64,000 nucleotides of DNA, from assembly GCF_030013205.1 (NCBI RefSeq), contig NZ_CP122648.1, one strand, 5' to 3'. Each line of letters opens with the position of its first letter. Position 1 is the stretch's first letter. Below, piece after piece: positions 11,257 through 55,429 of this stretch. This stretch comes from Escherichia coli (lineage in GTDB: Bacteria; Pseudomonadota; Gammaproteobacteria; Enterobacterales; Enterobacteriaceae). The notes beneath the pieces were generated by a model. It made no database searches. It was given only the letters and a program-made list of their open reading frames with translations, and was not told the DNA's origin. Both the position numbers and the translations under genes were made by a program.

Positions 11257-13683
11257 TTATATTTTTTCGATCTCGACCAGATTAGTGTGCTGCGGGTTTC
11301 CCTTCGCCAGTGGTGAAGGGCGCAGAGTGGTTAGCGTATTCACACAGCCGCCGTGGTCGATTTTATCGCCAGACATATTGGCCTCGTGCCAGGCTCCCTG
11401 GCCCATAGCGCTAACCCCAGGGAGAATGCGTGGTGTTACTTTGGCTGGTAGCCGAACTTCGCCACGATGGTTAAACACCCGCACCATATCGCCGTTGGCA
11501 ATCCCACGTTTCTGTGCGTCTATAGGGTTGATCCACACCTCCTGACGGCAGGCAGCCTTCAGGACATCAATGTTGCCGTAGGTCGAGTGAGTACGGGATT
11601 TGTAATGGAAACCAAACAGTTGCAGTGGAAAGGTACTACGTTCAGGGGAGTCCCAGCCTTCAAAGGTTGAGGCATAAACCGGCAGTGGGCTTATCACTTC
11701 ATCTTTTTCCAGTTCCCAGGTACGGGCAATTTCCGCCAGCTTGCTGGAATAAATTTCAATCTTACCGGAAGGCGTTTTAAGTGGATTTGCCTCGGGGTCG
11801 TCACGAAATGCTTTGTAGGCGACAAAATGACCATTAGGATCTTTACGCTTATAGATACCCATTTTTTTCAGTTCGTCGTAAGACGGTAACGCCGGATCTT
11901 TGGCAAGCATTTTGGCGTACAGATGTTGTAACCATTGTTCCTGCGTGCGACCTTCTGTGAACTTTTGATAGACGTCAGGTCCAAGACGTTTCGCGACCTC
12001 ACTCAGGATCCAGTAAATCGGTTTGCGTTCGAATTTTTCGCTGGTGACTGGCTGAAGGAAAATGAGATATCCCATGTTACCGGCGTAGTCGTTAGGAATA
12101 ATATCTTCCTGCTCAACGGTCATCAGGTCTGGCAGCAGAATGTCGGCATATTTTGCCGATGAGGTCATAAAGTTTTCGATGACCACAATCATTTCGCATT
12201 TCGATTCGTCCTGCAGAATTTCATGCGTTTTGTTGATGTCAGAATGCTGATTAACGAGGGTATTTCCCGCGTAGTTCCAGATGAACTTAATGGGCACATC
12301 CAGTTTATCTTTGCCGCGGACGCCGTCGCGGATTGCCGTCATTTGCGGGCCATGATCGATAGCATCTGTCCAGCTGAAGCAGGAGATTGACGTTTTGACC
12401 GGATTATCAAGCACCGGCAGGCGTTCTATGGTAATGGTATAGGTCGATTCACGCGCGCCACTATTTCCGCCGCTGATGCCGACATTGCCCGTCAGAATAG
12501 GCAACATCGCAATAGCGCGTGCAGTCAGCTCGCCGTTTGCCTGGCGTTGCGGTCCCCAGCCCTGACAGATATAAGCGGGTTTTGCTGTGCCAATTTCACG
12601 CGCCAGTTTGATGATACGGTCCACCGGGATACCGGTAATTTGCGAAGCCCACTGCGGCGTTTTCGCTGTTTTGTCGTCTCCTTCACCAAGAATATAGGCT
12701 TTATAGTGACCATTTTTTGGTGCATCTGCGGGTAAGGTTTTTTCGTCATAGCCGACGCAGTATTTATCGAGAAAAGGTTGATCAACGAGATTTTCGTTAA
12801 TCAATACCCAGGCAATACCCGCAACCAGCGCGGCATCGGTGCCCGGGCGAATAGGTAGCCATTCGTCTTCACGACCAGCAGCCGTATCGGTATATCGCGG
12901 ATCGATAACAATCATTTTTGCGTTCGATTTCTCTCGCGCTTTTTCAAGAAGATAAGTGATGCCACCGCCGCTCATGCGGGTTTCTGCCGGGTTGTTACCA
13001 AACATCACGACCAGCTTGCTGTTTTCAATATCCGTGGTGCTGTTGCCATCATTACTGCCGTAGGTGTAGGGCATGGCACAGGAAATTTGCGCGGTGCTGT
13101 AGGAGCCATACTGGTTGAGTGAACCGCCGTAGCAGTTCATCAGGCGTTTGACCGCCGAGGCTGATGGTGAAGAGCGGGTCATATTGCCGCCAACAATCCC
13201 CGAAGAGTACTGAATATATACAGCCTCATTGCCATATTGTTCGACGGTTTTTTTCAGGCTACTGGCGATAGTATCCAGGGCTTCATCCCAGCTAATCCGT
13301 TCGAATTTGCCTTCGCCGCGTTTGCCCACGCGTTTCATTGGGTAATTCAAGCGATCGGGATGATTAATACGCCGACGGATGGAGCGACCGCGCAAACAGG
13401 CACGTACTTGATGATTGCCATACTCGTCGTTGCCGGTGTTGTCAGTTTCCACCCAGGTCACTTCATTATCTTTAACATGCAGACGAAGTGCACAGCGGCT
13501 ACCACAGTTGACGGAACAGGCACCCCAGACCACTTTCTCGCTGGCCTGTTGTACCGCTGCCGCTGCACTGCGCAGGGTGAACGGTAAAGAAAAACCGCCT
13601 GCAGCCAGCGCCAGAGAACCTATCGCGGTAGATTTAACGAGTGTTCTGCGGCTGATGCCCACCATTTGTTCATTTTTGGACAT
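11257..13683 (-). CDS. ynfE: molybdopterin oxidoreductase catalytic subunit YnfE (selenate/DMSO reductase family)
   Basis: 808-aa ORF, twin-arginine signal (SRRTLVKSTAIG), collinear with ynfF along its length. Confidence 0.9.
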   Translation of the reverse strand: MSKNEQMVGISRRTLVKSTAIGSLALAAGGFSLPFTLRSAAAAVQQASEKVVWGACSVNCGSRCALRLHVKDNEVTWVETDNTGNDEYGNHQVRACLRGRSIRRRINHPDRLNYPMKRVGKRGEGKFERISWDEALDTIASSLKKTVEQYGNEAVYIQYSSGIVGGNMTRSSPSASAVKRLMNCYGGSLNQYGSYSTAQISCAMPYTYGSNDGNSTTDIENSKLVVMFGNNPAETRMSGGGITYLLEKAREKSNAKMIVIDPRYTDTAAGREDEWLPIRPGTDAALVAGIAWVLINENLVDQPFLDKYCVGYDEKTLPADAPKNGHYKAYILGEGDDKTAKTPQWASQITGIPVDRIIKLAREIGTAKPAYICQGWGPQRQANGELTARAIAMLPILTGNVGISGGNSGARESTYTITIERLPVLDNPVKTSISCFSWTDAIDHGPQMTAIRDGVRGKDKLDVPIKFIWNYAGNTLVNQHSDINKTHEILQDESKCEMIVVIENFMTSSAKYADILLPDLMTVEQEDIIPNDYAGNMGYLIFLQPVTSEKFERKPIYWILSEVAKRLGPDVYQKFTEGRTQEQWLQHLYAKMLAKDPALPSYDELKKMGIYKRKDPNGHFVAYKAFRDDPEANPLKTPSGKIEIYSSKLAEIARTWELEKDEVISPLPVYASTFEGWDSPERSTFPLQLFGFHYKSRTHSTYGNIDVLKAACRQEVWINPIDAQKRGIANGDMVRVFNHRGEVRLPAKVTPRILPGVSAMGQGAWHEANMSGDKIDHGGCVNTLTTLRPSPLAKGNPQHTNLVEIEKI

Positions 13684-19043: not shown

Positions 19044-20339
19044 TTAATTTTTCATTGCTTCGTTATGGGGCATGGTTGGGGCAAACTCGCTTAACTGTGT
19101 ATTTAACAAAGCTACCTGTGCATTATTGTTTTCAGACATCCATTTTCCGTATACCTGAAATACCATTTGCGCATCTGCATGGCCCATCTGGTTTGCTATA
19201 AATGCCGGGTTAGCACCAGCTGTCAGCGACCAGCAGGCATAAGTATGTCTCGACTGATATGATTTTCGATGGCGGAGTCCGGCACGTTTTATCGCTGCGT
19301 CCCACATCTGCCTTATTGAGTCAACGGTAAAATGGTCACCATAATTTTTTACTCTCGCTGACACTTCAGGTTGAAAAACAAAGGTGCATTTTTGTTTTTC
19401 TGTTCTGCCATACTCTCTGAGGTGAACATCAATGATATGCTCTTTGCTCAGTCTCGTTAATGTCATCTGACTCCGGAGAGCGTCGATTGCTGGCTTAATA
19501 AGATGAATGACCCGATTGGTTCCCGCCTGTGTTTTTGGTACCGTGAAACGGTCTTTTGCTAAATTTCTCCTGATCATCATTGTTCCATTTTTCAGATCTA
19601 TGTCCTCCCATCCAAGTGCACACAGCTCACCAGGGCGAACTCCAGTATAAACAGAAACACACCATAAATTTTTTGCTTGCTGATTTCTGCACGCATCGAT
19701 AAGACGGATAAATTCTTCCCGCGAAAGAGGATCCGGAATGGTTCTTGATTCCTTTAATGGCGAGATCCCCTTAAACGGATTATCTGCCAGGTAACCGTTA
19801 TCAACACCAAACTGGAACACGGCGTTAAGATTTGTCATGTAATTATTTACAGTTACAGCCGATCTCCCTGGTTGTGTAACAATATAGTTACTTTTGGGGA
19901 TCTGGTATCCAGTCAGTAACTCTTTACGAACCTCCAGTAATTTTTCTTTATTAATCGATGAGGCAAGATTTTTTTCACCGATTATGCTCAGGATATTTTT
20001 GATGACGGCACGGTATGTGTTGAGTGATGTTTTGGCGACTTCAGTTTCTTTCAGTGCCAGAAATTTTTCAGCCAGTTCTTTTATGGTTAAATCTTGTCGG
20101 GCCTCACCAAATTTTTCCAGATTGCGTGAGGAGGGAAACTGTTTTGCATAGTCGAAAACACCAGTTTTTATTGCGTAACAAACAGAGGAGCGTAGTTCAC
20201 CTGCAACGCGCCTGTTTTTTGCTGTGTCAGGAACCCCCAGATTTTCCCTGACTCTTACGTCTTTATAAACAAACCAGATACGTAATTTCCCTCCATGGTT
20301 TTCCACGCCTGTCGGATATTTCATTTCAACTTCTCTCAT
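19044..20339 (-). CDS. intQ: tyrosine-type phage integrase (apparently intact)
   Basis: 431-aa ORF adjacent to att core, with C-terminal catalytic R...HxxR...Y-type region (RHRKSYQSRHTYACW); internal ATG at 20324 (MKYPTGV) may be the true start. Confidence 0.85.
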   Translation of the reverse strand: MREVEMKYPTGVENHGGKLRIWFVYKDVRVRENLGVPDTAKNRRVAGELRSSVCYAIKTGVFDYAKQFPSSRNLEKFGEARQDLTIKELAEKFLALKETEVAKTSLNTYRAVIKNILSIIGEKNLASSINKEKLLEVRKELLTGYQIPKSNYIVTQPGRSAVTVNNYMTNLNAVFQFGVDNGYLADNPFKGISPLKESRTIPDPLSREEFIRLIDACRNQQAKNLWCVSVYTGVRPGELCALGWEDIDLKNGTMMIRRNLAKDRFTVPKTQAGTNRVIHLIKPAIDALRSQMTLTRLSKEHIIDVHLREYGRTEKQKCTFVFQPEVSARVKNYGDHFTVDSIRQMWDAAIKRAGLRHRKSYQSRHTYACWSLTAGANPAFIANQMGHADAQMVFQVYGKWMSENNNAQVALLNTQLSEFAPTMPHNEAMKN

Positions 20340-20358
20340 TAGTTAGTGTGGCTTTTAG

Positions 20359-20610
20359 TCAAGTAAGATGACGTCTTGGTCTCGCTGATGCCTGGCGCTC
20401 AATCCAGCGATCAATTTCTTCCAGGTTGTAAAAGCATGGACTGTTATCCCATGGCATACCGTCATGAGCGACATGCTTATATTCCCTTCCTTCCATAAAC
20501 GATTTTTCCCGGGCCTTTTTTAACGTACCTTTTTTTATTCCTTTCAGCGCAATTAACTGCTCTTCGGATACCCATTTGCCGGGAGAGACAATCATGATTA
20601 CTTCGCTCAT
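20359..20610 (-). CDS. excisionase-like small DNA-binding protein
   Basis: 83-aa ORF immediately upstream of int in the same orientation; basic N-terminal region. Confidence 0.7.
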   Translation of the reverse strand: MSEVIMIVSPGKWVSEEQLIALKGIKKGTLKKAREKSFMEGREYKHVAHDGMPWDNSPCFYNLEEIDRWIERQASARPRRHLT

Positions 20611-20682
20611 CGATTTCTTTATCTCTTACATCAGACGAGCGCCGGTTGCAGAATACCAGTCACAACCGGCGACAGTTGAACA

Positions 20683-23154
20683 TTAAGAATCAGCCTGACT
20701 CGGGATCAGTTTTTGCCAGATAACTGAAACGTATTTTGCCTGGTAACGGGCGTCATCAAGTGCATTATGGCGCTCACCTTCGAATGGAATAGCCGTTCTG
20801 GCATCGAAGTCTATGGCTTTCCCCAGCTCAACGATTGTGCGTACATCGCGATCGTTGTAGTAACGCCACGGGCAGGGGATCCCCTGCCGTTCGTATGAAC
20901 GGCGCAAAATCGTGTTGTCGAAGTTGGCTCCATTTCCCCAAACCTGAACAAAAAATTCACCGGAGTTTTCGTCGATAAATTCTCGCAATTGTAACAGTGC
21001 ATCATCTAACGGGATTTCATCGGTCATAATGGCAGATTGCGCTTCGCGTGATTGCTTAAGCCACCATTTAATGGTGTCCCGATCAATGACTCCGCCAGCA
21101 GTTTCCAGATCGATAGTCTTACTAAATTCCGGTCCCATATCTCCGGTTTGCGGATCGAAAAATATTGCACCTATTGAGATGATCGGGGCATCAGGATTTT
21201 TTCCCATGGTTTCAAGGTCGATCATTAGATGGTCACACGTCCTGCTGGTGGATGTGATTTCGTGATGACCGTTCACCTTAATTGGGTGATCTGCCGTCTC
21301 GCCAGTTTCATTATCGCTATTGTGATGCTGATTGCCGCCAGTGTTCTCCTTGTGTGGATGTTCAGCGCCTTCCATTTCCTCCGGATCATCTTCCTGAACT
21401 TCAACCTGATACTCTTCATCGAATGTTTCTTGGTATGTTGCGTCGCCCATCACCGCGCCACAATCAGGGCAGTTGCCGCCGCCGGTCTGACCGCAGGCGG
21501 TGCAGACTTTTTCCACTTCCTGTTGCGCTACTGGTTCAGGCTGTTTCGTTTCTGGCTCGTTTTGTAACGCATTTGGACTGTTTTGTTCCGCTTTTTGGTA
21601 GTTCCGTTCCGATTCATGCTGGTTCTGGTTCACAGAATCGCGGGTCTGGAGCCCCTTAACCCATTTCGGATCATTCGGGTCACTAATCCCTTCAACAAAT
21701 TCACCACGTGATGCAGCAAGCAACTTATCGGCGTCAGGCTGGCTGATATTGGCTGCCTGCATAATTTTGTTTACTTCGTCAGCGGTAACTTTTATCGGCT
21801 CTGGTTGTTCTGAATCTTCAGCGGTATCTACATTTTGCGGTAAGCCCGTGTATGTGCCATTTTTTCGGGCAAAATATTCTTCTTTTGTGATTTCAGTGGC
21901 GCCAGCAGCCAGTGCCTTATCCAGACCAGAGAGTTTGTTTGCGCGACCGTATTTTTCTCCGTCCTTATCTGCGAAGAGGAAATAGAACGGCCCCTCACGC
22001 TCTACAGATGGTTCAGCTTCCGGCGCGGTTTCATTTTTTGGGATATCAGATACCTCAGTTTCCACTGCATCAGTTTGTGTTTCTGATGACTGGAGAACAT
22101 CAACAGTGCCCAGGTCTGTTTCTTCATTCTCAAACACGCCCTTTGTCGTCAGGTATTCGCAGATATATTTGTTCAGTGCTACGGGATCTTTGTGAATGTC
22201 GATCGGACGCTCACGGACAAGGCCAAAAATAGTTTGGCGGTCGTAGCGAAGGGCATCAGGCTGTTTGCGCATTGATGCCGAGATACGCTTCCAGTCTTCG
22301 CGGTCGTTGTCGATAACTTCTTTTTTTGCCCAGCGATGGATGCTGCCGTCAATGTTTCCGGCATCCACATCACTAGGCCAGAGAGCGTAGGCCAGTTCGT
22401 CATCCAGTGTTTTCCATGTCTGCTTGTATTCGCGATGAATGGCAGCAATGACCGGGCTGATTTTTCCTGTTGAATTTTCAGTGTACTGTTGATTGGCTCT
22501 GGCGCGGGCGAGATCAACAACAGACGTGTATTTTCCGGTTTCCTTGCGTTCACCTTCGCGACGTTTTTTCCAGATGCGCATCTCTGCCTGAATTTCGGGC
22601 CATTTAGCACCAGGAATACATTTATGCTTAACCCACCCAATGGCGTGCAACTTAAGCTCCGGATACATGGCGTTAACTTCTGGCATTTTCATCAACGCTT
22701 CAACGATATGTCCGTCGAATGTTGCCATGTCTTCCTGCAACAATTCCTGTGCGCTAATAACCATATCAACGGTGATGTTTTCACATGTGTCGAACTTAAC
22801 CATGACAGCGTTCTGTACTTCAGGGGCCAGCTTGTCAAAAGTGACGTTCATCGGATCGGATTCAGTCTCAACCGGGACAAAAGAAGCAGACTCCTCATCC
22901 CAGCGGTTTTCCTGCATATATTCAGCATCCCATGAATCGAGGGCAGGGCGGGGTATGCCAGGTTTATCCTCGCAGACAATAAATTTATAAGCGCAGTCCT
23001 GAGCAGCCGGATAATGTTCCAGGAATTGCCAGTGAAATTTTGCTCGAGCACGGCGTTCGTCGCCAGCTTCAATGGCTGTGGCTACAGCCACAGCGCCTTC
23101 TTCCCTTGTTGCCAGTTCGTCAGGAATAGCGGCGCAAATAAAGACTTTACTCAT
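20683..23154 (-). CDS. ydfE: large prophage exonuclease: acidic low-complexity N-terminal region, CxxC...CxxC zinc ribbon, C-terminal DEDDh 3'-5' exonuclease domain
   Basis: ORF 20683..23190 has a TTG at its top; likely ATG at 23154 (MSKVFICAAIPDE) with GAGG upstream. Motifs MIDLETMG (Exo I), VWGNGANFDNTIL (Exo II), ERHNALDDARYQAKY (Exo III, H-x4-D); CTACGQTGGGNCPDCGAV zinc ribbon. Symbol by synteny with the K-12 fragment next to ydfD, not by sequence match. Confidence 0.75.
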   Translation of the reverse strand: MSKVFICAAIPDELATREEGAVAVATAIEAGDERRARAKFHWQFLEHYPAAQDCAYKFIVCEDKPGIPRPALDSWDAEYMQENRWDEESASFVPVETESDPMNVTFDKLAPEVQNAVMVKFDTCENITVDMVISAQELLQEDMATFDGHIVEALMKMPEVNAMYPELKLHAIGWVKHKCIPGAKWPEIQAEMRIWKKRREGERKETGKYTSVVDLARARANQQYTENSTGKISPVIAAIHREYKQTWKTLDDELAYALWPSDVDAGNIDGSIHRWAKKEVIDNDREDWKRISASMRKQPDALRYDRQTIFGLVRERPIDIHKDPVALNKYICEYLTTKGVFENEETDLGTVDVLQSSETQTDAVETEVSDIPKNETAPEAEPSVEREGPFYFLFADKDGEKYGRANKLSGLDKALAAGATEITKEEYFARKNGTYTGLPQNVDTAEDSEQPEPIKVTADEVNKIMQAANISQPDADKLLAASRGEFVEGISDPNDPKWVKGLQTRDSVNQNQHESERNYQKAEQNSPNALQNEPETKQPEPVAQQEVEKVCTACGQTGGGNCPDCGAVMGDATYQETFDEEYQVEVQEDDPEEMEGAEHPHKENTGGNQHHNSDNETGETADHPIKVNGHHEITSTSRTCDHLMIDLETMGKNPDAPIISIGAIFFDPQTGDMGPEFSKTIDLETAGGVIDRDTIKWWLKQSREAQSAIMTDEIPLDDALLQLREFIDENSGEFFVQVWGNGANFDNTILRRSYERQGIPCPWRYYNDRDVRTIVELGKAIDFDARTAIPFEGERHNALDDARYQAKYVSVIWQKLIPSQADS

Positions 23155-23791: not shown

Positions 23792-23849
23792 TAAAAAGGG
23801 CAGCAGAGCAGTCACGGAGTAAAACTGATACCGCCAAACGTCACCAGAA
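23792..23849 (-). ncRNA. dicF: DicF small RNA (ftsZ-targeting)
   Basis: Reverse complement reads TTTCTGGTGACGTTTGGCGGTATCAGTTTTACTCCGTGACTGCTCTGCTGCCCTTTTT, between ydfC and dicB as in K-12. Confidence 0.75.
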
Positions 23850-25612: not shown

Positions 25613-25919
25613 ACAGGCTCGTGAGGCTCTGGATGCCTGGATATGTCGACCAGGAATGACACAGGAGCAGGCGACGATATTAATCACTGAAGCATTCTGG
25701 GCTTTGAAAGAGCGCCCGAACATCGATGTTCAGCGTGTCACATATGAAGGTGGCGCGATTGATCAGCGAGCGCTTGGCGTTATCTGGTCATCACCTGACG
25801 GAGAAATACGTCGCTACGACAGTCGCCTAAACATAATCTGTCGCGAGTGCCGGAAGAGCGAAGTTATGCAGCGCATACTGGCTTTCTATCAGGGTAATTT
25901 TCAGGACGTGGCGCAGTGA
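25596..25919 (+). CDS. hypothetical prophage early-region protein
   Basis: 107-aa ATG-initiated ORF overlapping the dicC stop by 17 nt; its TGA overlaps the GTG start of the next gene (GTGAGTG). Confidence 0.45.
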   Translation: MKITPEQAREALDAWICRPGMTQEQATILITEAFWALKERPNIDVQRVTYEGGAIDQRALGVIWSSPDGEIRRYDSRLNIICRECRKSEVMQRILAFYQGNFQDVAQ

Positions 25920-26362
25920 GTGCACCGGCAACCATTCTTGATATGTGCTGTGGCAGCCGCATGTTCTGGTTCGATAAGTCTGACGAACGGGCGATATTCA
26001 GCGATATCAGAAAAGAAGGATACACATTACGCAATGGGAGACGCTTGATTATCAGCCCTGACATTATCGCAGATTTTCGTGCATTATCATTTGCAGACGC
26101 ATCTTTTTCGATGGTTGTATTAGACCCTCCGCATCTTGAGAGTGTTGGTGATAACGCCTGGATGGGAAAGAAATATGGACGGCTGAATAAAGATGCCTGG
26201 CGTGATGATTCGCGACAGAGATTTAAAGAAGCCTTTCGGGGGTTGAGGCCGCACGGCGTTCTGATTTTTTAATGGAATGAAACGCAAATACCGGTAAGCC
26301 AGATTCTGGCACTGACAGACAGAAAACCTGTTATCTGTCAACGAACAGGGAAAAAACGATAA
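25916..26362 (+). pseudogene. small SAM-dependent methyltransferase-like gene interrupted by an in-frame TAA
   Basis: LDMCCGS (motif I-like) then VVLDPPH (motif IV-like, DPPY/NPPY class) and LRPHGVLIF; TAA at 26270-26272; same frame stays open 29 more codons (WNETQIPVSQILALTDRKPVICQRTGKKR) with no start codon of its own. Confidence 0.5.
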
Positions 26363-26694
26363 AACCCACTGGATTATTTTTATGAAAGAGGCATCCAGTG
26401 AGTAGATTCGTAAGGCTACAGATACGTATATCTGAATAATTAAATTCAGTTCTGTAAATAAAATTTAATCCTTAACCGGATGGATTTCTGCACCCTCAGA
26501 ACATCAGGAGGCCGCCCGAAAGGGCGGTAGTGAAATGCGAATGTTCAAAATTATTATTGAAACGGGAATAGCTGGTGGAGATTTTGAGGATGTATTCGAA
26601 GTGGACGATGACGCAACACCTGAGGAAATTCATGACGGAGCATAAGAAATTTTCTTTAACTACTGCAATTACTCATACCACGAAATAAAAGACG

Positions 26695-26886
26695 ATGAGG
26701 AAGAACAAAGTGGCTGATTTTTGTTCAGCTAAATATAACATCAGTTTTGAAGAGCGGGATGAACTATTAATGGACTATGGTGAGTTACGCGGTGGAAGTG
26801 CTGCTGATGTCGAATCCTAGCGTGATGACTATGAAGCGGGAAAAACTCCGGTCGAAGCATATTGTGATGAGTGGGGCGATGAATGA
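26695..26886 (+). pseudogene. short acidic ORF with single in-frame TAG
   Basis: MRKNKVADFCSAKYNISFEERDELLMDYGELRGGSAADVES-TAG(26818)-RDDYEAGKTPVEAYCDEWGDE-TGA; downstream segment has no start codon. Confidence 0.35.
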
Positions 26887-27170
26887 GCGAGATTAATTAT
26901 CAGGAAGGGCATGAAACGGCGGGGCAAGCAAAACCAGTGGCATGGCGATATCGCTACGTGAAAAAAGGCGTTACGGACTTTCAGGGGAAGTAGTGGTCTG
27001 GTGACTGGAAATATGTACCGAAAAAAGAGGATTGTAACGACAGGCCGAACTATCAAATTCAGGCCTTATTCACTGCCTCACCAGTCCCAGTTACATCAGA
27101 AGAACTGGTTAAAGCTGTGCACTTTTATGAACAACTAAAACGCGAAAATCCACCAACATCCGGCAACTAG
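26883..27170 (+). pseudogene. short ORF with single in-frame TAG
   Basis: MSEINYQEGHETAGQAKPVAWRYRYVKKGVTDFQGK-TAG(26991)-WSGDWKYVPKKEDCNDRPNYQIQALFTASPVPVTSEELVKAVHFYEQLKRENPPTSGN-TAG; downstream segment lacks a start. Confidence 0.35.
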
Positions 27171-27424
27171 ATTAATGGATTAACTATGTCGGTTAAACGA
27201 CCAGCCAACTGAAAAAGCGGAAACCTGATTACAGGTTGCCAGATAAGGCAATGAGCTACCTGGCGCGGAACGGACTGATAAGTATGGGGAATGTTTTACG
27301 ATGAACCTTTAGACTAAAGAGTTTGTAACGCTATGTAAGTGATTTTTTCTGGTTTAGATATTTATATGTCCGGCCAAATTGAGGTGTGTTTAAATGTAAT
27401 TGCACATTGATTGTAGGAGGAATA

Positions 27425-27604
27425 ATGAAAAACGCATTGCAGTTTTTGTTTGTTGCGTTCTGGTTGTTCGCATCATGTATGCCCATCATCTTCACAGCAA
27501 GGTATATGGAAAAAGTTGATGTTTTGATATTAATATTTGGATATATAAATGCCCTTTTTTTAGGGGTGTTCATGGCGGTCATGTGCATTGAATACTGGCG
27601 GTAA
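27425..27604 (+). CDS. small two-TM membrane protein (59 aa), function unknown
   Basis: ATG at 27425 preceded by AGGAGG 7 nt upstream; MKNALQFLFVAFWLFASCMPIIFTARYMEKVDVLILIFGYINALFLGVFMAVMCIEYWR; very AT-rich codons. Confidence 0.5.
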   Translation: MKNALQFLFVAFWLFASCMPIIFTARYMEKVDVLILIFGYINALFLGVFMAVMCIEYWR

Positions 27605-27938
27605 ATACAGCGAACTCCATTGGTTTAGTTGGATATTTACTGTGCTGGACAAAAACGGTTTGCGGGGAAATCTTAGTTAAGTAGAATGACTGCGGGTGCT
27701 TGAGGCTATCTGCCTCGGGCATGGACACCAACGGCAGATAGAGAAAAGCCCCAGTTAACATTACGCGTCCTGCAAGACGCTTAACATTAATCTGAGGCCA
27801 ATTTCATGCTAGACACATGTAGGTTAGCCTCTTACGTGCCGAAAGGCACGGAGAAGCAGGCTATTGTTAACACCAAGTTGTAATGTCCCCTTTGAACCAT
27901 TCTAAAATGTCCCCAGACAATTCTCTGGGGGATTTTTC

Positions 27939-29252
27939 ATGATCAAAGAGACTGTTACGATGAGTCATAAGGAACTCCACCGACTTCAGATTATTCAGGA
28001 ACAAGCTGCGGCACGCATTGGCATTTCTATTCGGCAGGTTAAACGTCTGGTGCAACGGTATAGAAATGAAGGGCCTTCTGGTCTGGTTTCCCACCGACGT
28101 GGAAAGCGTCCTAATAATTCCTTTTCTACTGAATTCAGAGCAACAGTAATTTCACTCCTCAAAGGCCGTTACGCTGATTTTGGACCTACGTTTGCGTGCG
28201 AAAAATTGCGCGAGATACACGGTTTATCTTTATCCGTTGAAACTCTCAGAAAGTGGATGATAGAAGAGGGGTTATGGCGTGAACGCCGTCGTAAAATTGC
28301 CCGTATATATCAACGCCGCATGCGACGACCATCTTACGGTGAACTGATCCAGATTGATGGCTCACCTCATGACTGGTTTGAAAATCGAGGCCCCAGATGT
28401 ACACTGATCGTTTTCATTGATGATGCCACCAGTGCGTTGATGGCGTTGCGTTTTGTGCCTGCTGAAACAACCCGGGCTTACATGGAAACCCTCCGGGGTT
28501 ACCTTAATGATCATGGCGTACCGCTCGCTCTCTACTCTGATAGACACAGTATATTCAGGGTAAATAACCCAGAGCGGGAAGGTGAGCTGACCCAGTTCAC
28601 TCGTGCGATAAAGACACTGGGCATCGAGCCAATCCATGCCAACAGCCCGCAGGCAAAAGGGCGGGTAGAGCGCGCCAATCAGACACTACAGGACAGGCTG
28701 GTCAAAGAAATGCGGCTTCAGAATATCAGTGATATTGAAACAGCAAATGCATGGTTGCCGACCTTTATTGAAGCCTATAACAACCGGTTCGCTACGTCGC
28801 CTCGTACTACTGATAATGCTCATCTTGATGTGCACCATTCTGAAGAGGAACTGGGTTATATCTTCAGCCTACAGGCGAAGCGCGTTCTGTCTAAAAATCT
28901 CACTTTCCAGTACAAAAGCAGTGCGTTTCAGGTACGCAGTGAGGGCCGGGGATATCGACTTAGGCATTCGGTTGTTACTGTATGCGAGAACTTTGACGGT
29001 GAAATTAACGTTCTGTATGACGGGAAAGCGCTGGGCTGGGAAAAGTATGTTGATGGCCCGGAGCCTATACCACTGGATGATGAAAAGAGTGTCCATGAAC
29101 GAGTGGATAATGCCCGTATTGATTTACGCTCAAAATACTATGTTAAACCTAAAGCTGACCATCCCTGGCTTACGCGCCGAACGCAAAGTCATCAGCAAGT
29201 TAAGCCCCCGAAGTTACCTAAAAAGAAGCCTGATCCCGATAAAAAAGATTGA
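27939..29252 (+). CDS. DDE transposase with N-terminal HTH and integrase-core (rve) domain, IS481/ISNCY-like
   Basis: 437-aa ORF; HTH IGISIRQVKRLVQRY; catalytic-looking residues in LIQIDGSPHD, LALYSDRHSIF and KGRVERANQTLQD; basic Lys/Pro-rich C-terminus. Confidence 0.8.
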   Translation: MIKETVTMSHKELHRLQIIQEQAAARIGISIRQVKRLVQRYRNEGPSGLVSHRRGKRPNNSFSTEFRATVISLLKGRYADFGPTFACEKLREIHGLSLSVETLRKWMIEEGLWRERRRKIARIYQRRMRRPSYGELIQIDGSPHDWFENRGPRCTLIVFIDDATSALMALRFVPAETTRAYMETLRGYLNDHGVPLALYSDRHSIFRVNNPEREGELTQFTRAIKTLGIEPIHANSPQAKGRVERANQTLQDRLVKEMRLQNISDIETANAWLPTFIEAYNNRFATSPRTTDNAHLDVHHSEEELGYIFSLQAKRVLSKNLTFQYKSSAFQVRSEGRGYRLRHSVVTVCENFDGEINVLYDGKALGWEKYVDGPEPIPLDDEKSVHERVDNARIDLRSKYYVKPKADHPWLTRRTQSHQQVKPPKLPKKKPDPDKKD

Positions 29253-29585
29253 AACCAAGATCGATTCGGTTGAGTGCATATCCATTCATAGGGTAGATTC
29301 TTAAGTCGCGTTTCTGGTGTTCATTTTCGGGTGGTTTGTTACTTGTTTTACCGGGGATATGCCAGAAACGCGCTGAGTCAGTCTGGGCGGTGCGCGTAAT
29401 GAGGCGTTATGGTAAATAGCCTATGCTAATGTCCGCTAAGAGCAAGAAGCGGAAGTTGGCAGTTTTGTGGACTGTCCCCACAAAAGTGACTACAGAAATA
29501 GTTGCAATTCATAATTGATCATGGGTTGTCAGTTAAACTCGTGGCGATTTAAATAGACTAATTGGGAGTGCGTCCATTACTTATA

Positions 29586-29635
29586 TCTTGTAATGTTAAC
29601 TATCAGAAATTCTTGTAATGTTAACTATCAGAAAT
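29586..29635. repeat. perfect 25-bp tandem direct repeat x2 (tcttgtaatgttaactatcagaaat)
   Basis: Read directly; each unit contains a GTTAAC palindrome; lies just downstream of the flxA terminator. Confidence 0.85.
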
Positions 29636-29676
29636 GATACAAAGATAATATGTCTTTAAAGAAAAGGCTGATGGCG

Positions 29677-29699
29677 AAAAGTGGCCCGATGAGGGCCAC
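29677..29699 (-). terminator. rho-independent terminator of flxA
   Basis: Minus-strand hairpin GUGGCCC-ucauc-GGGCCAC followed by UUUU, 15 nt after the flxA stop. Confidence 0.5.
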
Positions 29700-29713
29700 A
29701 ATACGGCTGTCAC

Positions 29714-30046
29714 TTAGACGTAAATATCAATGGTGCCAGCGGTATTTGTATCGTCTTTTTTCTCTTCTTTTTTATCAGGCTGAACTGTCGCGTCTTCATT
29801 CTTTTTCTCTGCCTGCTGCCTTAACAACTGCTCCAGTTGAGCCCAGAGGCTTTCAATTTGCTTCTGTACCAATGCAGCCATTTCTTTTTTCTGCTGTGTC
29901 GTCATCCCCTCTTCCGATGAGATTTTCCCAAGCTTTTCAGTCAGCACCTGAATTTGTCTTGTGATTTTGGCTATTTCTGATGTTCCTTCCGGGGCGGAGT
30001 TGTTTGAAATAACGGTTGAGGTATTTCCCTGAATTGTGACAGACAT
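29714..30046 (-). CDS. flxA: FlxA (FliA-regulated protein, coiled-coil, Lys/Glu-rich C-terminus)
   Basis: 110-aa ORF MSVTIQGNTSTVISNNSAPEGTSEIAKITRQIQVLTEKLG... Confidence 0.9.
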   Translation of the reverse strand: MSVTIQGNTSTVISNNSAPEGTSEIAKITRQIQVLTEKLGKISSEEGMTTQQKKEMAALVQKQIESLWAQLEQLLRQQAEKKNEDATVQPDKKEEKKDDTNTAGTIDIYV

Positions 30047-30069
30047 AGATTTCTCCTTTTAAAAAAGCA

Positions 30070-30096
30070 CTATCGGCATGCACAAAAAAATCTTTA
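30070..30096 (-). promoter_or_regulatory. sigma-28 (FliA) class promoter for flxA
   Basis: Minus strand reads TAAAGATT-N11-GCCGATAG, matching consensus TAAAGTTT-N11-GCCGATAA, about 25-50 nt upstream of the flxA ATG. Confidence 0.6.
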
Positions 30097-30248
30097 ATCG
30101 TATTTCTTGTGTCATTAATTGTTTGATGTTCAGATTGTTTTCCTCGCGGGCTGGCGCGCCTCAGAAAGTAAAGCTTGTTGACAGGGGTAAACGTTCGGCA
30201 ATAATTTTCTGCCGCATGCGGGTGTTGCATAAAACGTGTTACGTTCCT

Positions 30249-30554
30249 TTATCGACAGGTCAGGTCACCGCTCACCCGCCGACGAGAAAGCAACACTGAC
30301 ATGCTAAAGCAAAAAATAGATGAATAAGTTGAGTTGTGCATATGTAGCCTGACCGTCACAAAGTATATGGTGTCTGTACCAGTAAGATGATGGCCGGACT
30401 CTTTAAAAACGAGCTGACCTGCACAATACAGGATGGACTTAGCAATGGCTGCTCCTGGCACAAAGCGGACAGTGATCACCGTTCTTACGACTACTTTCTG
30501 ACTTCCTTCGTGACTTGCCCTAAGCATGTTGTAGTGCGATACTTGTAATGACAT
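30249..30554 (-). CDS. ydfV: hypothetical prophage protein (ydfV position)
   Basis: 101-aa ORF between flxA and relB, divergent from relB as in K-12; symbol by position and length only. Confidence 0.45.
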   Translation of the reverse strand: MSLQVSHYNMLRASHEGSQKVVVRTVITVRFVPGAAIAKSILYCAGQLVFKESGHHLTGTDTIYFVTVRLHMHNSTYSSIFCFSMSVLLSRRRVSGDLTCR

Positions 30555-30578
30555 TTGTAATTACAAGAGGTGTAAGAC

Positions 30579-30818
30579 ATGGGTAGCATTAACCTGCGTA
30601 TTGACGATGAACTTAAAGCGCGTTCTTACGCCGCGCTTGAAAAAATGGGTGTAACTCCTTCTGAAGCGCTTCGTCTCATGCTCGAGTATATCGCTGACAA
30701 TGAACGCTTGCCGTTCAAACAGACACTCCTGAGTGATGAAGATGCTGAACTTGTGGAGATAGTGAAAGAACGGCTTCGTAATCCTAAGCCAGTACGTGTG
30801 ACGCTGGATGAACTCTGA
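30579..30818 (+). CDS. relB: RelB antitoxin (RHH)
   Basis: 79-aa ORF MGSINLRIDDELKARSYAALEKMGVTPSEALRLMLEYIADNERLPF... Confidence 0.95.
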   Translation: MGSINLRIDDELKARSYAALEKMGVTPSEALRLMLEYIADNERLPFKQTLLSDEDAELVEIVKERLRNPKPVRVTLDEL

Positions 30819-31105
30819 TGGCGTATTTTCTGGATTTTGACGAGCGGGCACTAAAGGAATGGCGAAAGCTGGGCTCGACGGTACGTGAACAGTTGAAAAA
30901 GAAGCTGGTTGAAGTACTTGAGTCACCCCGGATTGAAGCAAACAAGCTCCGTGGTATGCCTGATTGTTACAAGATTAAGCTCCGGTCTTCAGGCTATCGC
31001 CTTGTATACCAGGTTATAGACGAGAAAGTTGTCGTTTTCGTGATTTCTGTTGGGAAAAGAGAACGCTCGGAAGTATATAGCGAGGCGGTCAAACGCATTC
31101 TCTGA
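30818..31105 (+). CDS. relE: RelE mRNA interferase toxin
   Basis: 95-aa ORF MAYFLDFDERALKEWRKLGSTVREQLKKKLVEVLESPRIEANKLRG...; start overlaps relB stop (ATGA). Confidence 0.95.
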   Translation: MAYFLDFDERALKEWRKLGSTVREQLKKKLVEVLESPRIEANKLRGMPDCYKIKLRSSGYRLVYQVIDEKVVVFVISVGKRERSEVYSEAVKRIL

Positions 31106-31176
31106 ACCAAAGCATGACATCTCTGTTTCGCACCGAAGGTGACACTTCTGCTTTGCGTTGACAGGAGAAGCAGGCT

Positions 31177-31332
31177 ATGAAGCAGCAAAAGGCGATGTTA
31201 ATCGCCCTGATCGTCATCTGTTTAACCGTCATAGTGACGGCACTGGTAACGAGGAAAGACCTCTGCGAGGTACGAATCCGAACCGGCCAGACGGAGGTCG
31301 CTGTCTTCACAGCTTACGAACCTGAGGAGTAA
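31177..31332 (+). CDS. hokD: Hok-family membrane toxin HokD (RelF)
   Basis: Manual translation: MKQQKAMLIALIVICLTVIVTALVTRKDLCEVRIRTGQTEVAVFTAYEPEE (51 aa); below the ORF-track cutoff. Confidence 0.85.
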   Translation: MKQQKAMLIALIVICLTVIVTALVTRKDLCEVRIRTGQTEVAVFTAYEPEE

Positions 31333-31401
31333 GAGACCCGGCGGGGGAGAAATCCCTCGCCACCTCTGATGTGGCAGGCATCCTCAACGCACCCGCACTT
31401 A

Positions 31402-31430
31402 ACCCGCTTCGGCGGGTTTTTGTTTTTATT
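31402..31430 (+). terminator. rho-independent terminator after relBE-hokD
   Basis: cccgc-ttcg-gcggg hairpin followed by tttttgtttttatttt. Confidence 0.6.
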
Positions 31431-31548
31431 TTCAACGCGTTTGAAGTTCTGGACGGTGCCGGAATAGAATCAAAAATACTTAAGTAGCGCGCAGGGATAA
31501 GAGGGATGGTCCCTTAAAGGGGAGAGCTAATTATCCGGAAGGATTCTG

Positions 31549-31800
31549 ATGATGAACATCGAAGAACTGCGTAAAATTTTTTGTGAAGATGGCCTCTATG
31601 CTGTGTGCGTTGAAAATGGAAATCTTGTTAGTCATTACCGCATTATGTGTTTGCGAAAGAATGGGGCTGCGTTAATTAATTTTGTGGATGCTCGGGTCAC
31701 GGACGGATTTATCTTGCGCGAAGGTGAGTTTGTCACTTCATTACAGGCATTGAAAGAGATCGGAATAAAAGCTGGCTTTTCTGCTTTTTCAGGAGAATAA
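31549..31800 (+). CDS. rem: Qin prophage protein Rem
   Basis: 83-aa ORF MMNIEELRKIFCEDGLYAVCVENGNLVSHYRIMCLRKNGAALINFVDARV... Confidence 0.8.
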   Translation: MMNIEELRKIFCEDGLYAVCVENGNLVSHYRIMCLRKNGAALINFVDARVTDGFILREGEFVTSLQALKEIGIKAGFSAFSGE

Positions 31801-31866
31801 ACTCATCTACAATCTTGCGCGGGGCTGAACTCCCGCTGAGTAACACCGTGCCACCGGAGAAAACCG

Positions 31867-32145
31867 ATGGCACGCAACGCAAAATATTACAATTCTGATA
31901 ATTCGCCCGTTCTTGCCTGCACGCACGGGCGGTATTCTCACGCATTCAAGTCTGAATGGTTCCAGCACCCTCCATGCACTGCAGAACAGGCCGAATGGCT
32001 GATTCATTCTTACCGCAGGCGCGGGTTCGAGGTTAAGAAAGCTCTCAGTCTCGACTATCGGCACTGGATAATCTCTGTCAGGCTGCCTTATTCCGAACGC
32101 CCACCACGTGCGTCCCGCACTTTCCAGCAACGGATCTGGAGGTAA
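31867..32145 (+). CDS. hypothetical small prophage protein
   Basis: 92-aa ORF overlapping the ydfU start by 38 nt; no recognisable motif; may be spurious. Confidence 0.3.
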   Translation: MARNAKYYNSDNSPVLACTHGRYSHAFKSEWFQHPPCTAEQAEWLIHSYRRRGFEVKKALSLDYRHWIISVRLPYSERPPRASRTFQQRIWR

Positions 32146-33196
32146 CGTGCGGGTATTACTTAGACCTGTTCTGGTGCCTGAGCTTGGGCTGGTGGTCCTT
32201 AAGCCGGGCCGTGAATCCATACAGATATTTCATAATCCTCGAGTGCTGGTGGAACCGGAACCAAAAAGCATGCGTAATCTGCCATCCGGAGTCGTTCCTG
32301 CCGTTCGCCAGCCGCTGGCGGAAGACAAAACATTGCTGCCGTTTTTTAGTAACGAACTGGTGATTCGTGCTGCTGGCGGCGTTGGCGCATTGTCCGACTG
32401 GCTATTACGTCATGTTACATCCTGCCAGTGGCCTAATGGCGATTACCATCACACTGAAACAGTCATTCACCGTTATGGTACCGGCGCAATGGTGTTGTGC
32501 TGGCACTGCGACAACCAACTGCGTGACCAGACATCGGAATCACTGGAGCTGCTTGCTCAACAAAATCTGACAGCATGGGTGATTGACGTCATCCGTCACG
32601 CAATAAGCGGTACGCAGGAGCGGGAATTATCTTTGGCTGAATTATCCTGGTGGGCGGTCTGCAATCAGGTGGTGGATGCACTACCTGAGGCTGTATCGCG
32701 TCGTTCGCTGGGATTACCAGCGGAAAAAATCTGCTCGGTGTACCGCGAAAGCGACATCGTACCGGGAGAGCAGACCGCCACCAGCATATTGAAACAACGC
32801 ACAAAAAATCTTGCACCGTTGCCTTACGCCCACCAGCAACAAAAATCACCACAGGAAAAGACGGTGGTAAGAATCACCGTTGATCCAGAGTCTCCGGAAT
32901 CTTTCATGAAGCTGCCTAAACGTCGCCGCTGGGTTAAGGAGAAATACACACGTTGGGTTAAGACACAGCCGTGTGCTTGCTGCGGTATGCCAGCCGACGA
33001 TCCGCATCATCTGATTGGTCACGGGCAGGGCGGAATGGGAACAAAAGCACATGATCTCTTTGTGTTGCCTTTGTGCAGAAAGCATCACAACGAGCTGCAT
33101 ACGGATACAGTGGCATTTGAAGATAAGTATGGCTCCCAACTGGAGCTGATATTTCGTTTTATCGATCGCGCGCTGGCAATTGGCGTACTGGCGTAA
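32108..33196 (+). CDS. ydfU: DUF968-family prophage protein YdfU (Cys/His-rich C-terminus)
   Basis: 362-aa ORF; C-terminal CACCGMPADDPHHLIGHGQGGMGTKAHDLFVLPLCRKHHNELH metal-binding-like region. Confidence 0.8.
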   Translation: MRPALSSNGSGGNVRVLLRPVLVPELGLVVLKPGRESIQIFHNPRVLVEPEPKSMRNLPSGVVPAVRQPLAEDKTLLPFFSNELVIRAAGGVGALSDWLLRHVTSCQWPNGDYHHTETVIHRYGTGAMVLCWHCDNQLRDQTSESLELLAQQNLTAWVIDVIRHAISGTQERELSLAELSWWAVCNQVVDALPEAVSRRSLGLPAEKICSVYRESDIVPGEQTATSILKQRTKNLAPLPYAHQQQKSPQEKTVVRITVDPESPESFMKLPKRRRWVKEKYTRWVKTQPCACCGMPADDPHHLIGHGQGGMGTKAHDLFVLPLCRKHHNELHTDTVAFEDKYGSQLELIFRFIDRALAIGVLA

Positions 33197-34596: not shown

Positions 34597-34896
34597 AAAA
34601 ATTCCTTAATACTGATAACTTGGCGCACTATACACACGTTCCTGAAGAAAGCTATAGTTTTTTGATGGGGTTGAAGATGGCTGGATGTCTAAAATAAACA
34701 TTGCTTCATATGTTCAACTATGCGTTAATGATTGCGTCGGTTTGAAGAACAGACGATATACGAAGTAGTTTACTAAAGCAGTTCTCATTTCAGGTGTTAT
34801 TCACTTATTCCTTCTTTGAGTCTCTCCAATTAAGTACGAAGTCGTTTCTGTTATGCAAACCATTTATGCCGAAAGGCTCAAGTTAAGGAATGTAGA

Positions 34897-35112
34897 ATGT
34901 CAAATAAAATGACTGGTTTAGTAAAATGGTTTAACGCTGATAAAGGTTTCGGCTTTATTTCTCCTGTTGATGGTAGTAAAGATGTGTTTGTGCATTTTTC
35001 TGCGATTCAGAATGATAATTATCGAACCTTATTTGAAGGTCAAAAGGTTACCTTCTCTATAGAGAGTGGTGCTAAAGGTCCTGCAGCAGCAAATGTCATC
35101 ATTACTGATTAA
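34897..35112 (+). CDS. cspB: cold-shock protein CspB
   Basis: 71-aa [54 protein letters not shown]... Confidence 0.9.
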
Positions 35113-35475
35113 AATTCATCGCTCGTCTGTATACGATAACGAAGAAGGCTGATGCCTGAGTAGAGATACGGACAGAGTAGTGAATATTGGATCTCTTTAA
35201 TAAAAAGTAAGGAGGTCCAATACATGAAACAATGGCTAGCATATTTGGCAAAATCTTAATCAGGAAAAGTATGCTAACCATTGTGGTGAAGTGCAGGTTT
35301 GCTGAATGAATAGTTTTACAGCAGAAGCTAACTGCTGGCATGGCAAAACAAAGTGCGTAAGTGGATGACTCCCACAAAAAGCACCACAATCTCAAACCCG
35401 CTCAGGCGGGTTTTTTATTATCTGCTTTAAATATATTATTAAAATATAAAAAATACTTGTTACTAATAAAATCAA

Positions 35476-37421: not shown

Positions 37422-37782
37422 GGTAATATTAAATCGGAACATTTACATCGCGGAATGTAAAATTTAAATAAAAAGGACTCTTCCATGAGCCAAAATTCCT
37501 GAAATCTTAAGGGTAAGATAAAAGGTCTTAATCAGAATGACACGTTTTATTAATAAATAAAGCTATTCTTTCATTGCTGTGTTTTTCTTTACAAAAGTAA
37601 TCCTTGCTATGGGTGGTTAATCATGCGTTAATGGTGTTCTGGTTTGTTACAAATTTATCTGAAGCAGTCATTGTTATAATTTTATTATTTGTACCTCTTG
37701 AGATTTCCTTGTTGGTTTTTCTCTCTGATATTTTTTTCGGACCATTCTGCCCAAGGGCTAATTTCTTCAAAAGGTAATAATT

Positions 37783-37995
37783 ATGTCTAACAAAATGACT
37801 GGTTTAGTGAAATGGTTTAACCCTGAAAAAGGTTTTGGTTTCATCACGCCGAAAGATGGCAGCAAAGATGTGTTTGTCCATTTCTCAGCAATTCAGAGCA
37901 ACGATTTCAAAACATTAACTGAGAATCAGGAAGTTGAATTTGGTATTGAGAACGGACCTAAAGGTCCTGCCGCTGTTCATGTAGTGGCGCTTTGA
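37783..37995 (+). CDS. cspI: cold-shock protein CspI
   Basis: 70-aa [54 protein letters not shown]... Confidence 0.9.
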
Positions 37996-38197
37996 GGTAG
38001 ACAATATTACAAACCATATTCACTTTAGATGCCCGTGTTGTCATGGTTCCCAGTATAGAACATCATCTTTTGATGTTTCTGACATGAATCCTTTCGGGGC
38101 AAAATGTATCTTTTGTAAATCAATGATGATTACATTTGATAATATTTCACAATACTTAAATGCCAGCCGTCTGTCGTTGGATTTGAAAAAGTGAAAA

Positions 38198-43904: not shown

Positions 43905-44479
43905 TGGCATTCAGAATGAGTGAACAACCACGGACCATAAAAATTTATAATCTGCTGGCCGGAACTAATGAATTTATTGGTGAAGGTGATGCATATATTC
44001 CGCCTCATACAGGTCTGCCAGCAAACAGTACCGATATTGCACCGCCAGATATTCCGGCTGGCTTCGTGGCTGTTTTCAACAGTGATGAGTCATCGTGGCA
44101 TCTCGTTGAAGATCATCGGGGTAAAACGGTTTATGACGTGGCTTCCGGCGACGCGTTATTTATTTCTGAACTCGGTCCGTTACCGGAAAATGTTACCTGG
44201 TTATCGCCGGAAGGGGAGTTTCAGAAGTGGAACGGCACAGCCTGGGTGAAGGATACGGAAGCAGAAAAACTGTTCCGGATCCGGGAGGCGGAAGAAACAA
44301 AAAACAACCTGATGCAGGTAGCCAGTGAGCATATTGCGCCGCTTCAGGATGCTGCAGATCTGGAAATCGCAACGGAGGAAGAAATCTCGTTGCTGGAAGC
44401 ATGGAAAAAGTATCGGGTATTGCTGAACCGTGTTGATACGTCAACTGCACAGGATATTGAATGGCCAGCACTGCCGTAG
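43904..44479 (+). CDS. tfaQ: tail fibre assembly protein
   Basis: 191-aa [57 protein letters not shown]... Confidence 0.9.
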
Positions 44480-55381: not shown

Positions 55382-55429
55382 GCTCCGTTTAACATTCATT
55401 GAGAAAACTGATGCTACTGTGTCAACGAT

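Follow-up and report, generated by a model that had tools for sequence, protein, structure and literature searches.

The relBEF operon of Escherichia coli K-12 has long been known, and its trio of genes is ordinary. Northern blots with relB, relE, and relF probes revealed a single full-length relBEF transcript in K-12 (PMC3598666). Ribosome-dependent mRNA cleavage by RelE, neutralized by RelB, is established for the K-12 proteins and would be expected of the identical proteins considered here. In a complete hok/sok locus, the hok coding sequence is directly preceded by an mRNA leader containing tac, ucb, the mok start, and the Sok target, an antisense sok gene with its own promoter overlaps this leader, and a 3' fbi element is complementary to the 5' tac element, with which it pairs in the model proposed for hok mRNA (PMC9841398). 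Prophage loci of the hokW-sokW kind have been described as well (PMC8621323). The IS1202 family of insertion sequences (IS) is distinguished by transposases of ~400-500 aa with an N-terminal helix-turn-helix (HTH), imperfect inverted repeats of 24-29 bp that start with TGT, and, in one subgroup, long duplications of 15-17 bp (PMC10132070; bioRxiv 10.1101/2022.12.17.520857). Duplication lengths characteristic of the family are 5-6, 15-17, or 27-28 bp.

A 64,000-nt stretch of E. coli DNA (contig NZ_CP122648.1; the window, hereafter) was analyzed, in which three genes follow one another on the plus strand: relB, for the antitoxin (30579-30818; 79 aa), relE, for the toxin, a ribosome-dependent mRNA endonuclease (30818-31105; 95 aa), and hokD, or relF, for a Hok/Gef membrane toxin (31177-31332; 51 aa). 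An initial annotation had presented them (30579-31430) as a toxin module within a prophage. The gene identities and coordinates were borne out by 100% identity to K-12 and by Pfam matches to RelB (112.3 bits, E 1e-32), ParE_toxin (51 bits, E 2e-13), and HOK_GEF (82.9 bits, E 1e-23, spanning hokD residues 6-47 of 51, with a cut-off of 22 bits), all far above the curated cut-offs. RelBE pairs are recognized by an RHH antitoxin and a RelE/ParE-fold toxin, and Hok/Gef toxins by their signature in a ~50-aa peptide with an N-terminal transmembrane helix. The window sequence contains no frameshift or premature stop in relB, or in relE and hokD, where the initial annotation would have taken such lesions as refuting. 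The unity of the module did not survive, as relBE appears to be the right arm of a transposon and hokD the 3' half of a split hok/sok locus, that is, parts of two mobile entities. The locus relB-relE-hokD would very probably represent the right-hand junction between this transposon and its target. Such a junction would explain why hokD lacks sok and relBE its own terminator, and why the fragments ydfW and ydfX occur in K-12.

Parts of this history have been anticipated. According to a later citation, hokD lacks canonical regulatory parts owing to a 'genomic rearrangement' (Pedersen and Gerdes 1999, as cited in PMC12214031), and plasmid-acquired relBE is similarly quoted as having 'integrated' into an ancestral, longer hokD open reading frame (ORF) (Ramisetty and Santhosh 2016, as cited in PMC6379469; PMC5120126). 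A literature search found no description of a vehicle, inverted repeats, a 15-16-bp duplication, a displaced sok half, or recurrence at hok-family loci; it covered neither of the two primary papers (Pedersen and Gerdes 1999; Ramisetty and Santhosh 2016), which possibly show part of this. The gene trio being already known, what appears to be new is an IS1202-family transporter element with a built-in toxin-antitoxin (TA) arm and a hok-specific target. A much-studied TA locus would then be the outward-reading end of a transposon that has landed repeatedly on plasmid and prophage hok killer genes, providing a natural example of an addiction system that displaces or captures a second one.

The split hok/sok locus and the element between its halves

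Homology of hokD to complete hok/sok loci breaks immediately upstream of its Shine-Dalgarno (SD) sequence. In a search with hokD alone, at least 80% of the query was found in 2822 genomes, and in genomes without relBE the match always starts at query position 64, which is window position 31163, 14 nt before the hokD ATG. Judged by sequence comparison, hokD belongs to a normal prophage hok/sok locus of the hokW-sokW kind and constitutes its 3' part. Downstream of the coding sequence, an orphan fbi element, CCTCAACGCACCC (31381-31393, plus strand), is complementary to tac, GGGTGCTTGAGG, and the intrinsic terminator of the hok mRNA (31401-31428, plus strand; hairpin plus T-run at 31401-31418) now terminates relB-relE-hokD. 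This terminator is identical in two relBE-less loci with intact hok/sok, one from an O157:H7 strain (L002) and the other from strain 504838 (L003), which occupy the same prophage position.

The missing half of the locus lies elsewhere in the window. BLAST aligned L003 2826-3016 with window 27674-27864 and L003 3001-5034 with window 31163-33196, the two matches overlapping by 16 nt of L003. These matches reveal one hok/sok locus in two halves, ~3.3 kb apart, that share a short overlap. A gathering-threshold Rfam scan of the whole window identified a sok/hok-leader match of 104.1 bits (gathering threshold 59) at 27694-27865, and a tac search of the window found its sole exact copy at 27694-27705. 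The orphan hok mRNA 5' leader (27694-27864, plus strand) thus begins with tac and includes the mok' start, an ATG at 27806; it is 97.9% identical to L003 and colinear with it up to GGAGAAGCAGGCTAT, which ends at 27864, and diverges thereafter. Reading of the sequence suggests a hok promoter for the split locus at 27660-27693 on the plus strand (-35 TTGCGG, 27660-27665; -10 TAGAAT, 27682-27687), aligning with the promoter-like TTGGCG-17-TAGAAT of L003. Likewise, a candidate sok promoter was read on the minus strand (-35 GTGCCT, 27849-27844; -10 TAACCT, 27826-27821; 17-nt spacing), with a -35 element of TTGCCT in L003 versus GTGCCT in the window. Relative to a complete hok/sok locus, the window thus retains the Hok coding sequence, the 3' untranslated region with fbi, and the terminator, while the leader half stands elsewhere, the locus being split by 3.3 kb. 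hokD is carried on a relBE-driven transcript without tac, ucb, mok, or Sok target. The leader is not found directly upstream of hokD, nor is an antisense sok with its own promoter found overlapping the sequence that precedes it; fbi is present and complementary to tac, yet the two are on different transcripts.

The initial annotation had noted no sok-like antisense RNA and proposed searching the strand opposite the hokD 5' region for a sok promoter and terminator. This was done, and neither was found, so that the remark stands for the surroundings of hokD; it does not extend to the window, where a sok-bearing leader is present at 27694-27865. The Rfam model sok (RF01794), which represents the hok mRNA leader with the Sok target together with the sok gene, gave zero matches at E<=1 in 29500-32500. 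This negative is meaningful because the same model scores 104 bits in L002 and 117 bits in L003, intact relBE-less loci in which the match ends at the hok ATG. Read by eye, the minus strand opposite the hokD SD consists of sequence of the element's right inverted repeat (IRR) and offers no acceptable -10, and a scan of 30300-31600 found no promoter-like or terminator-like sites on the minus strand; on both strands, it found no other site of either kind between relB and the terminator at 31401. The candidate sok promoter was found solely in the orphan leader. Matches of isrK (25 bits versus 50) and rsmX to the hok terminator region were sub-threshold and were dismissed as terminator-like similarity; the isrK match recurs in intact loci, and the rsmX match is not listed there.

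The 3299 bp between the two halves (27865-31163) have the anatomy of a DDE transposon. The left inverted repeat (IRL), TGTTAACACCAAGTTGTAATGTCCCCTT (27865-27892, plus strand; 28 bp, beginning TGT), and the IRR, whose reverse complement is TGTCAACGCAAAGCAGAAGTGTCACCTT (31136-31163, minus strand; 30 nt past the relE stop), are imperfect, agree at 20 of 28 positions, and give the element TGT...ACA ends. They are the only such pair in 27700-31300, and a match of at least 20/28 occurred in 2 of 2000 random 180-nt windows. The mok frame is truncated to a 25-codon ORF that ends within the IRL. At the IRR, homology to the relBE plasmid L004 stops and homology to relBE-less hok loci begins. A 15-bp duplication, GGAGAAGCAGGCTAT, consisting of the hok SD and the 'AT' of the ATG, borders the element at 27850-27864 and, as an exact repeat, at 31164-31178; it is single in L002 and L003. 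The right copy supplies the SD and the 'AT' of the hokD start, everything further upstream on the transcript being transposon sequence, and hokD retains an SD and an ATG only because the duplication regenerates both.

The transposase gene (27939-29252, plus strand; an uninterrupted ORF of 437 aa) starts 74 nt inside the left end. Its product matches the NCBIfam equivalog model NF033594, transpos_ISNCY_2, with 456 bits (cut-off 250), placing it in the ISNCY/IS1202-like ISEsa1 family; Pfam finds HTH_32/29/28 and rve_3 domains, and RefSeq names homologues 'IS1202-like element ISEsa1 family transposase'. The element is modular, with a conserved left arm (position 1 to ~1593), a conserved right arm (~2571-3299), and a variable middle. 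The right arm comprises the relBE promoter/operator, relB, relE, and the IRR. The relB TGA and relE ATG share one base (TGATG), a translational overlap with the antitoxin first. At 30542-30567, 12 nt upstream of relB, lies a relO-type operator composed of a 12-nt inverted repeat, CTTGTAATGACA / TGTAATTACAAG, with 92% complementary arms. We take it to be a RelB2-RelE binding site, a function that is established for relO and predicted here.

In the sequence of events that these features suggest, an IS1202-family transposon with an ISEsa1-like DDE transposase would have inserted into the hok translation-initiation region and duplicated the 15 bp GGAGAAGCAGGCTAT. The insertion would have left the hok promoter, tac, the mok start, and the sok gene on the left (27660-27864), and the hok coding sequence, fbi, and terminator on the right, where the duplication copy gives an intact SD and ATG. 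The hok promoter would now point into the transposase gene. relBE, autoregulated by RelB/RelE at its operator, might serve the transposon as a stabilizing (addiction) module, and hok loci, enriched on plasmids and prophages, might serve as a conserved landing site, in parallel to the ISAjo2 branch, which targets pdif.

Two further boundaries were considered and set aside. A second, internal IRR ~1.6 kb from the IRL, as would fit the 1609-bp ISEsa1 of ISfinder, was sought, and the best match (12/22) was at background level. In L004, relBE extends to the IRR, beyond which an IS21-family element stands in place of hok; this locus gave the first hint of position 31163 and was judged a secondary rearrangement. 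Within the variable middle of the element lies flxA (29714-30046, minus strand; Pfam FlxA, 53.8 bits), a passenger gene. The ydfV ORF (30249-30554, minus strand) has no family match and is either a passenger or spurious.

Recurrence at other hok-family loci

The element or its ends served as queries against plasmids, species-representative genomes, viral contigs, and metagenomes, and ~100 loci were recovered. Exact 15- or 16-bp repeats flank 42 of these and comprise six sequences, each corresponding to the local target on both sides. The prophage hokD type, GGAGAAGCAGGCTAT, flanks 36 loci and GGAGAAGCAGGCTATG flanks one. The others are GGAGAAGAAGGCCAT in an Enterobacter IncF plasmid (L006), GGAGAAGAAGGCCATG at two loci with elements of 4237 and 4600 bp, TGGAGGGGCTATGAT at the pnd locus beside trbA of a Salmonella IncI plasmid (L007), and GGAGAAGTCAGCTAT around a 12,843-bp element of a Phytobacter IncF plasmid (L009). 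Insertion points among the copies are offset by 1 nt and by 2-3 nt.

Both sides of the insertions bear the marks of hok. The Rfam sok model directly abuts the IRL in L007, L009, L013, and L047, and 19 of 30 distinct informative left flanks are of the hok-leader type, four more adjoining another element end across a hok-type 15-nt spacer. On the right, an intact Hok-family ORF of 51-52 aa stands at a fixed distance from 55 of the 59 ends with enough sequence, and these ORFs represent three subfamilies (HokD-like, Hok/Flm-like, and PndA-like). Orientation is invariant, with the transposase toward the leader and relBE toward the hok coding sequence. From these independent insertions, we infer that the relBE-to-hok arrangement would be a recurrent product of orientation-specific, hok-targeted transposition; because the duplications are independent, the orientation is constant, and the sites are of the hok family, it resembles a recurrent junction of transposon and target rather than an evolved three-gene module.

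In the copy on the Phytobacter plasmid pMRY16-398_1 (L009 1261-14103), the nickel resistance genes ncrABCY, the chromate resistance genes chrBA, and a HupE/UreJ gene lie between the transposase and relBE, and the element sits, with a 15-bp duplication of its own, in the hok locus beside psiA of an IncF conjugative plasmid. By carrying nickel and chromate resistance into such a locus, this 12.8-kb relative makes the element relevant to the spread of resistance genes.

Several loci depart from the common pattern. In L008 (1885-1955) and L088 (about 11665-11759), tandem copies are arranged as a right end, a 15-nt hok-type spacer (GGAGAAGAAGGCCTG or GGAGAAAAAGGCTAT), and a left end, as if the regenerated target had been struck twice. 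In L063, L072, L075, L082, L085, L086, and L098 (flank AAGGAGTTGTATGGGTCC), TTGTATGGGTCCACC stands in place of the hok start behind a typical hok leader and SD, and the ORF downstream of this variant in L075 has just 12 codons; TTGTATGGGTCCACC may be a remnant of another element's end. Left flanks that are not hok-like were seen in L023 (1345-4645), L010 (3765), L011 (2100), L083, L089/L102, L097, and L099, and these represent either off-target insertions or later rearrangements. The left arm was also matched in many Enterobacter, Klebsiella, and Phytobacter plasmids. Among prophage copies, two size classes, one of 3274 bp and one longer by ~27 bp (3301-3302 bp), occur about equally often.

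Expression and function of hokD

Studies conducted in K-12 by others have shown that hokD has no promoter of its own and that its transcription depends entirely on the relBE promoter, which is autorepressed by RelB/RelE and from which read-through reaches hokD as the distal cistron. When the K-12 relB promoter (PrelBEF) was deleted, no induced 3' fragments were observed (PMC3598666). In line with this finding, a candidate internal promoter for hokD was rejected: its TTGACA (31159-31164) belongs to the IRR and has no -10 partner, and the published promoter-deletion data agree. The initial annotation's assignment of the three genes to one operon with a clean terminator is supported by their common orientation, by the single terminator, and by the one relBEF transcript of K-12 (PMC3598666). 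One practical consequence is that relBE deletions take away the sole promoter of hokD, which matters for the interpretation of such mutants.

The anatomy of the locus, taken together with the established hok/sok mechanism, has two consequences for regulation. Sok should be unable to act on the hokD transcript because its target, the mok initiation region, lies across the transposon. The tac-dependent activation pathway should likewise be lost, with an orphan fbi left behind. The idea that the right arm acts as an anti-SD and silences hok, through pairing of UUCUCU in the relE stop region with the hok SD, performed no better than shuffled controls and was not used as evidence.

Whether hokD has any function of its own is a separate matter from how it came to stand behind relBE. 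It might be a silent by-product of the insertion, neither translated nor selected, with only relBE being of consequence, a proposal that is quite plausible even though we lean slightly away from it. The K-12 chromosomal hok loci, hokD included, have been described as inactive (PMC12214031), and the tac/mok/Sok activation route is gone, with fbi orphaned. Furthermore, hokD contains a TACG motif (31315-31318) at its Tyr47 codon, the motif at which TadA edits A to I and thereby converts Tyr to Cys, and hokD mRNA is edited to merely ~6% (PMC12214031), while the resulting Cys codon is thought important for toxicity. An intact hokD ORF may reflect just a recent insertion. Against silence, the duplication leaves hokD its own SD and ATG, the Hok ORF is intact at 55 of 59 junctions, and the HokD coding sequence is toxic when expressed, as shown in K-12 by others. 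In addition, after cleavage by endoribonuclease toxins, the relF portion survives in greater amounts than any other fragment of the relBEF mRNA (PMC3598666).

Alternative origins and relation to known elements

Several observations weigh against a hok-targeted transposon as the source of the locus. Mobility was inferred from comparative anatomy, and the window copy is itself probably immobile or defective, given that its transposase lacks nine codons (QESINRHIT, in-frame, in the first N-terminal HTH) relative to 446-aa plasmid copies and that RefSeq calls the transposase a pseudogene in the identical strain K_EC180. Seven of the 30 distinct IRL flanks are not hok-like, and L023, the sole two-sided non-hok copy, lies near two tRNA genes and has only a 6-bp repeat, CGCCTT. 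Many of the 36 GGAGAAGCAGGCTAT loci probably descend from one ancestral event that spread with its prophage. Furthermore, a 2023 survey gives ISfinder's ISEsa1 a length of 1609 bp and lists neither a target duplication nor a target for it (PMC10132070). Finally, the predicted probability of the hok SD being unpaired was 0.16-0.29 in the four junction types, and shuffled upstream sequences sequestered the SD equally well in 22 to 84 of 200 cases.

A one-off illegitimate or homologous recombination, the 'major genetic rearrangement' of earlier literature, from which plasmid copies would descend via recombination between hok loci, is a poor but conceivable alternative. Lambdoid prophages and F-like plasmids recombine freely, the mismatched flanks of L047 and L075 indicate that recombination between copies does occur, and one duplication sequence is common to most loci. 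A single event of this kind is hard to reconcile with six different exact duplications of 15-16 bp, each agreeing on both sides with the hok type present locally and with offset insertion points, with an orientation that is constant in all copies, or with TGT...ACA ends and a family-typical DDE transposase adjoining the IRL. That the genes form an evolved three-gene prophage module, a mixed type II/type I operon in which sok is merely absent or undetected, is very improbable: although the genes are co-oriented, co-transcribed in K-12, served by one terminator without an internal promoter, and so arranged in at least 1161 of 5426 complete E. coli genomes, such a module is already contradicted by the empty-site comparison, in which relBE-less hok/sok loci become homologous precisely from 31163 onward, 14 nt ahead of the hokD ATG. 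It is contradicted as well by the inverted repeats, transposase, and 15-bp duplication that bracket relBE, by the sok-bearing half of the hok locus that lies at 27660-27864, and by the occurrence of one and the same relBE right arm next to Hok proteins of three subfamilies.

An IS1202-family transposon inserted into hok, the preferred origin, agrees with that family in its ~440-aa DDE transposase with an N-terminal HTH, in its ~28-bp imperfect TGT ends, in its 15-16-bp duplication, which is of a characteristic length, and in its orientation-specific insertion beside a conserved plasmid-borne sequence. These likenesses hold for the family as represented by ISEsa1, the ISTde1 subgroup, and the ISAjo2/ISAba32 subgroup. 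It differs from a simple 1.3-2-kb IS with a single ORF, the bounded units measuring 3.3, 4.2, 4.6, and 12.8 kb. Because units of 3.3-12.8 kb contain passengers and a fixed relBE right arm, the element is better regarded as a transporter IS or transposon than as a plain IS. Unlike the ISAjo2/ISAba32 subgroup, with its dif/pdif target, the element inserts at the hok translation-initiation region and not at a Xer site, and, in contrast to ISEsa1 as listed, it has both a duplication and a target. These findings suggest that one IS1202-family branch, listed without any known target, does have a target specificity.

A broader proposal is that ISEsa1-type elements are a family of hok-homing transposons rather than 1.6-kb IS without a target, with the relBE arm included in the transposition unit; we regard this as a tentative idea, on present comparisons rather unlikely. 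Under this proposal, the transposase would recognize the hok/pnd leader by its conserved 3' end and insert in one orientation at the SD/start codon, and the outward-reading relBE would put the resident killer gene under RelB/RelE control. The replicon's own hok/sok addiction would thereby be disabled, and the transposon would gain a hybrid type II/type I stabilization module, while the hok promoter and Sok might now govern transposase expression. If this were true, the textbook relBEF operon of K-12 would be a decayed copy of such an element.

Transposons of the Tn3 family with built-in TA systems offer another comparison (PMC7157771). In both cases, a type II TA appears to form a conserved part of the transposon core and not accidental cargo. 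The present element would differ in being DDE IS1202-like and in having its TA at the extreme right end, reading outward over the inverted repeat into the target gene, a position that would allow relBE to capture a second toxin of another type.

The 1.1 kb at window positions 30400-31500 are 100% identical to E. coli K-12 MG1655 and to many other strains, and at least 1161 of 5426 complete E. coli genomes contain the stretch in full. In MG1655, it is annotated as relB, relE, and hokD within the cryptic prophage Qin, between the pair flxA and ydfV and the genes rem, ydfU, and ydfT, which bears out the prophage location proposed initially. The window shares with the Qin relBEF locus the sequence over this stretch, the genes, the operator, the terminator, and the downstream rem, ydfU, and ydfT; it differs in keeping the complete element and both junctions. 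MG1655 lacks window positions 25782-29068, which include the hok leader/sok half, the IRL, and most of the transposase. As judged from this alignment, the K-12 state is a later deletion of 25782-29068 that left ydfW-flxA-ydfV-relBE-hokD, and K-12 'ydfW' corresponds to the last 49 codons of the transposase.

In strain K_EC180, from swine, 3298 bases (27865-31162) are 100% identical to the window, and the annotated genes on both sides correspond to those of the window. Neither the element nor sok is annotated in K_EC180, and neighboring prophage genes are called pseudogenes.

Other differences and features were noted along the window. Compared with MG1655, in the extra 3.3 kb of the window a DUF977 fragment and a frameshifted SAM-methyltransferase accompany the hok leader and the larger part of the transposase, and a different 2.2-kb stretch (20203-22388) occupies the place where K-12 has IS2. 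Further Rfam matches above the gathering threshold were DicF small RNA (23798-23849, minus strand; 71 bits), two cspA-type 5' untranslated region thermoregulators (34736-35128 and 37638-38022, both plus strand; 159 and 114 bits), IS009 (44247-44445, plus strand; 222 bits), and STnc560 (55393-55606, plus strand; 280 bits).

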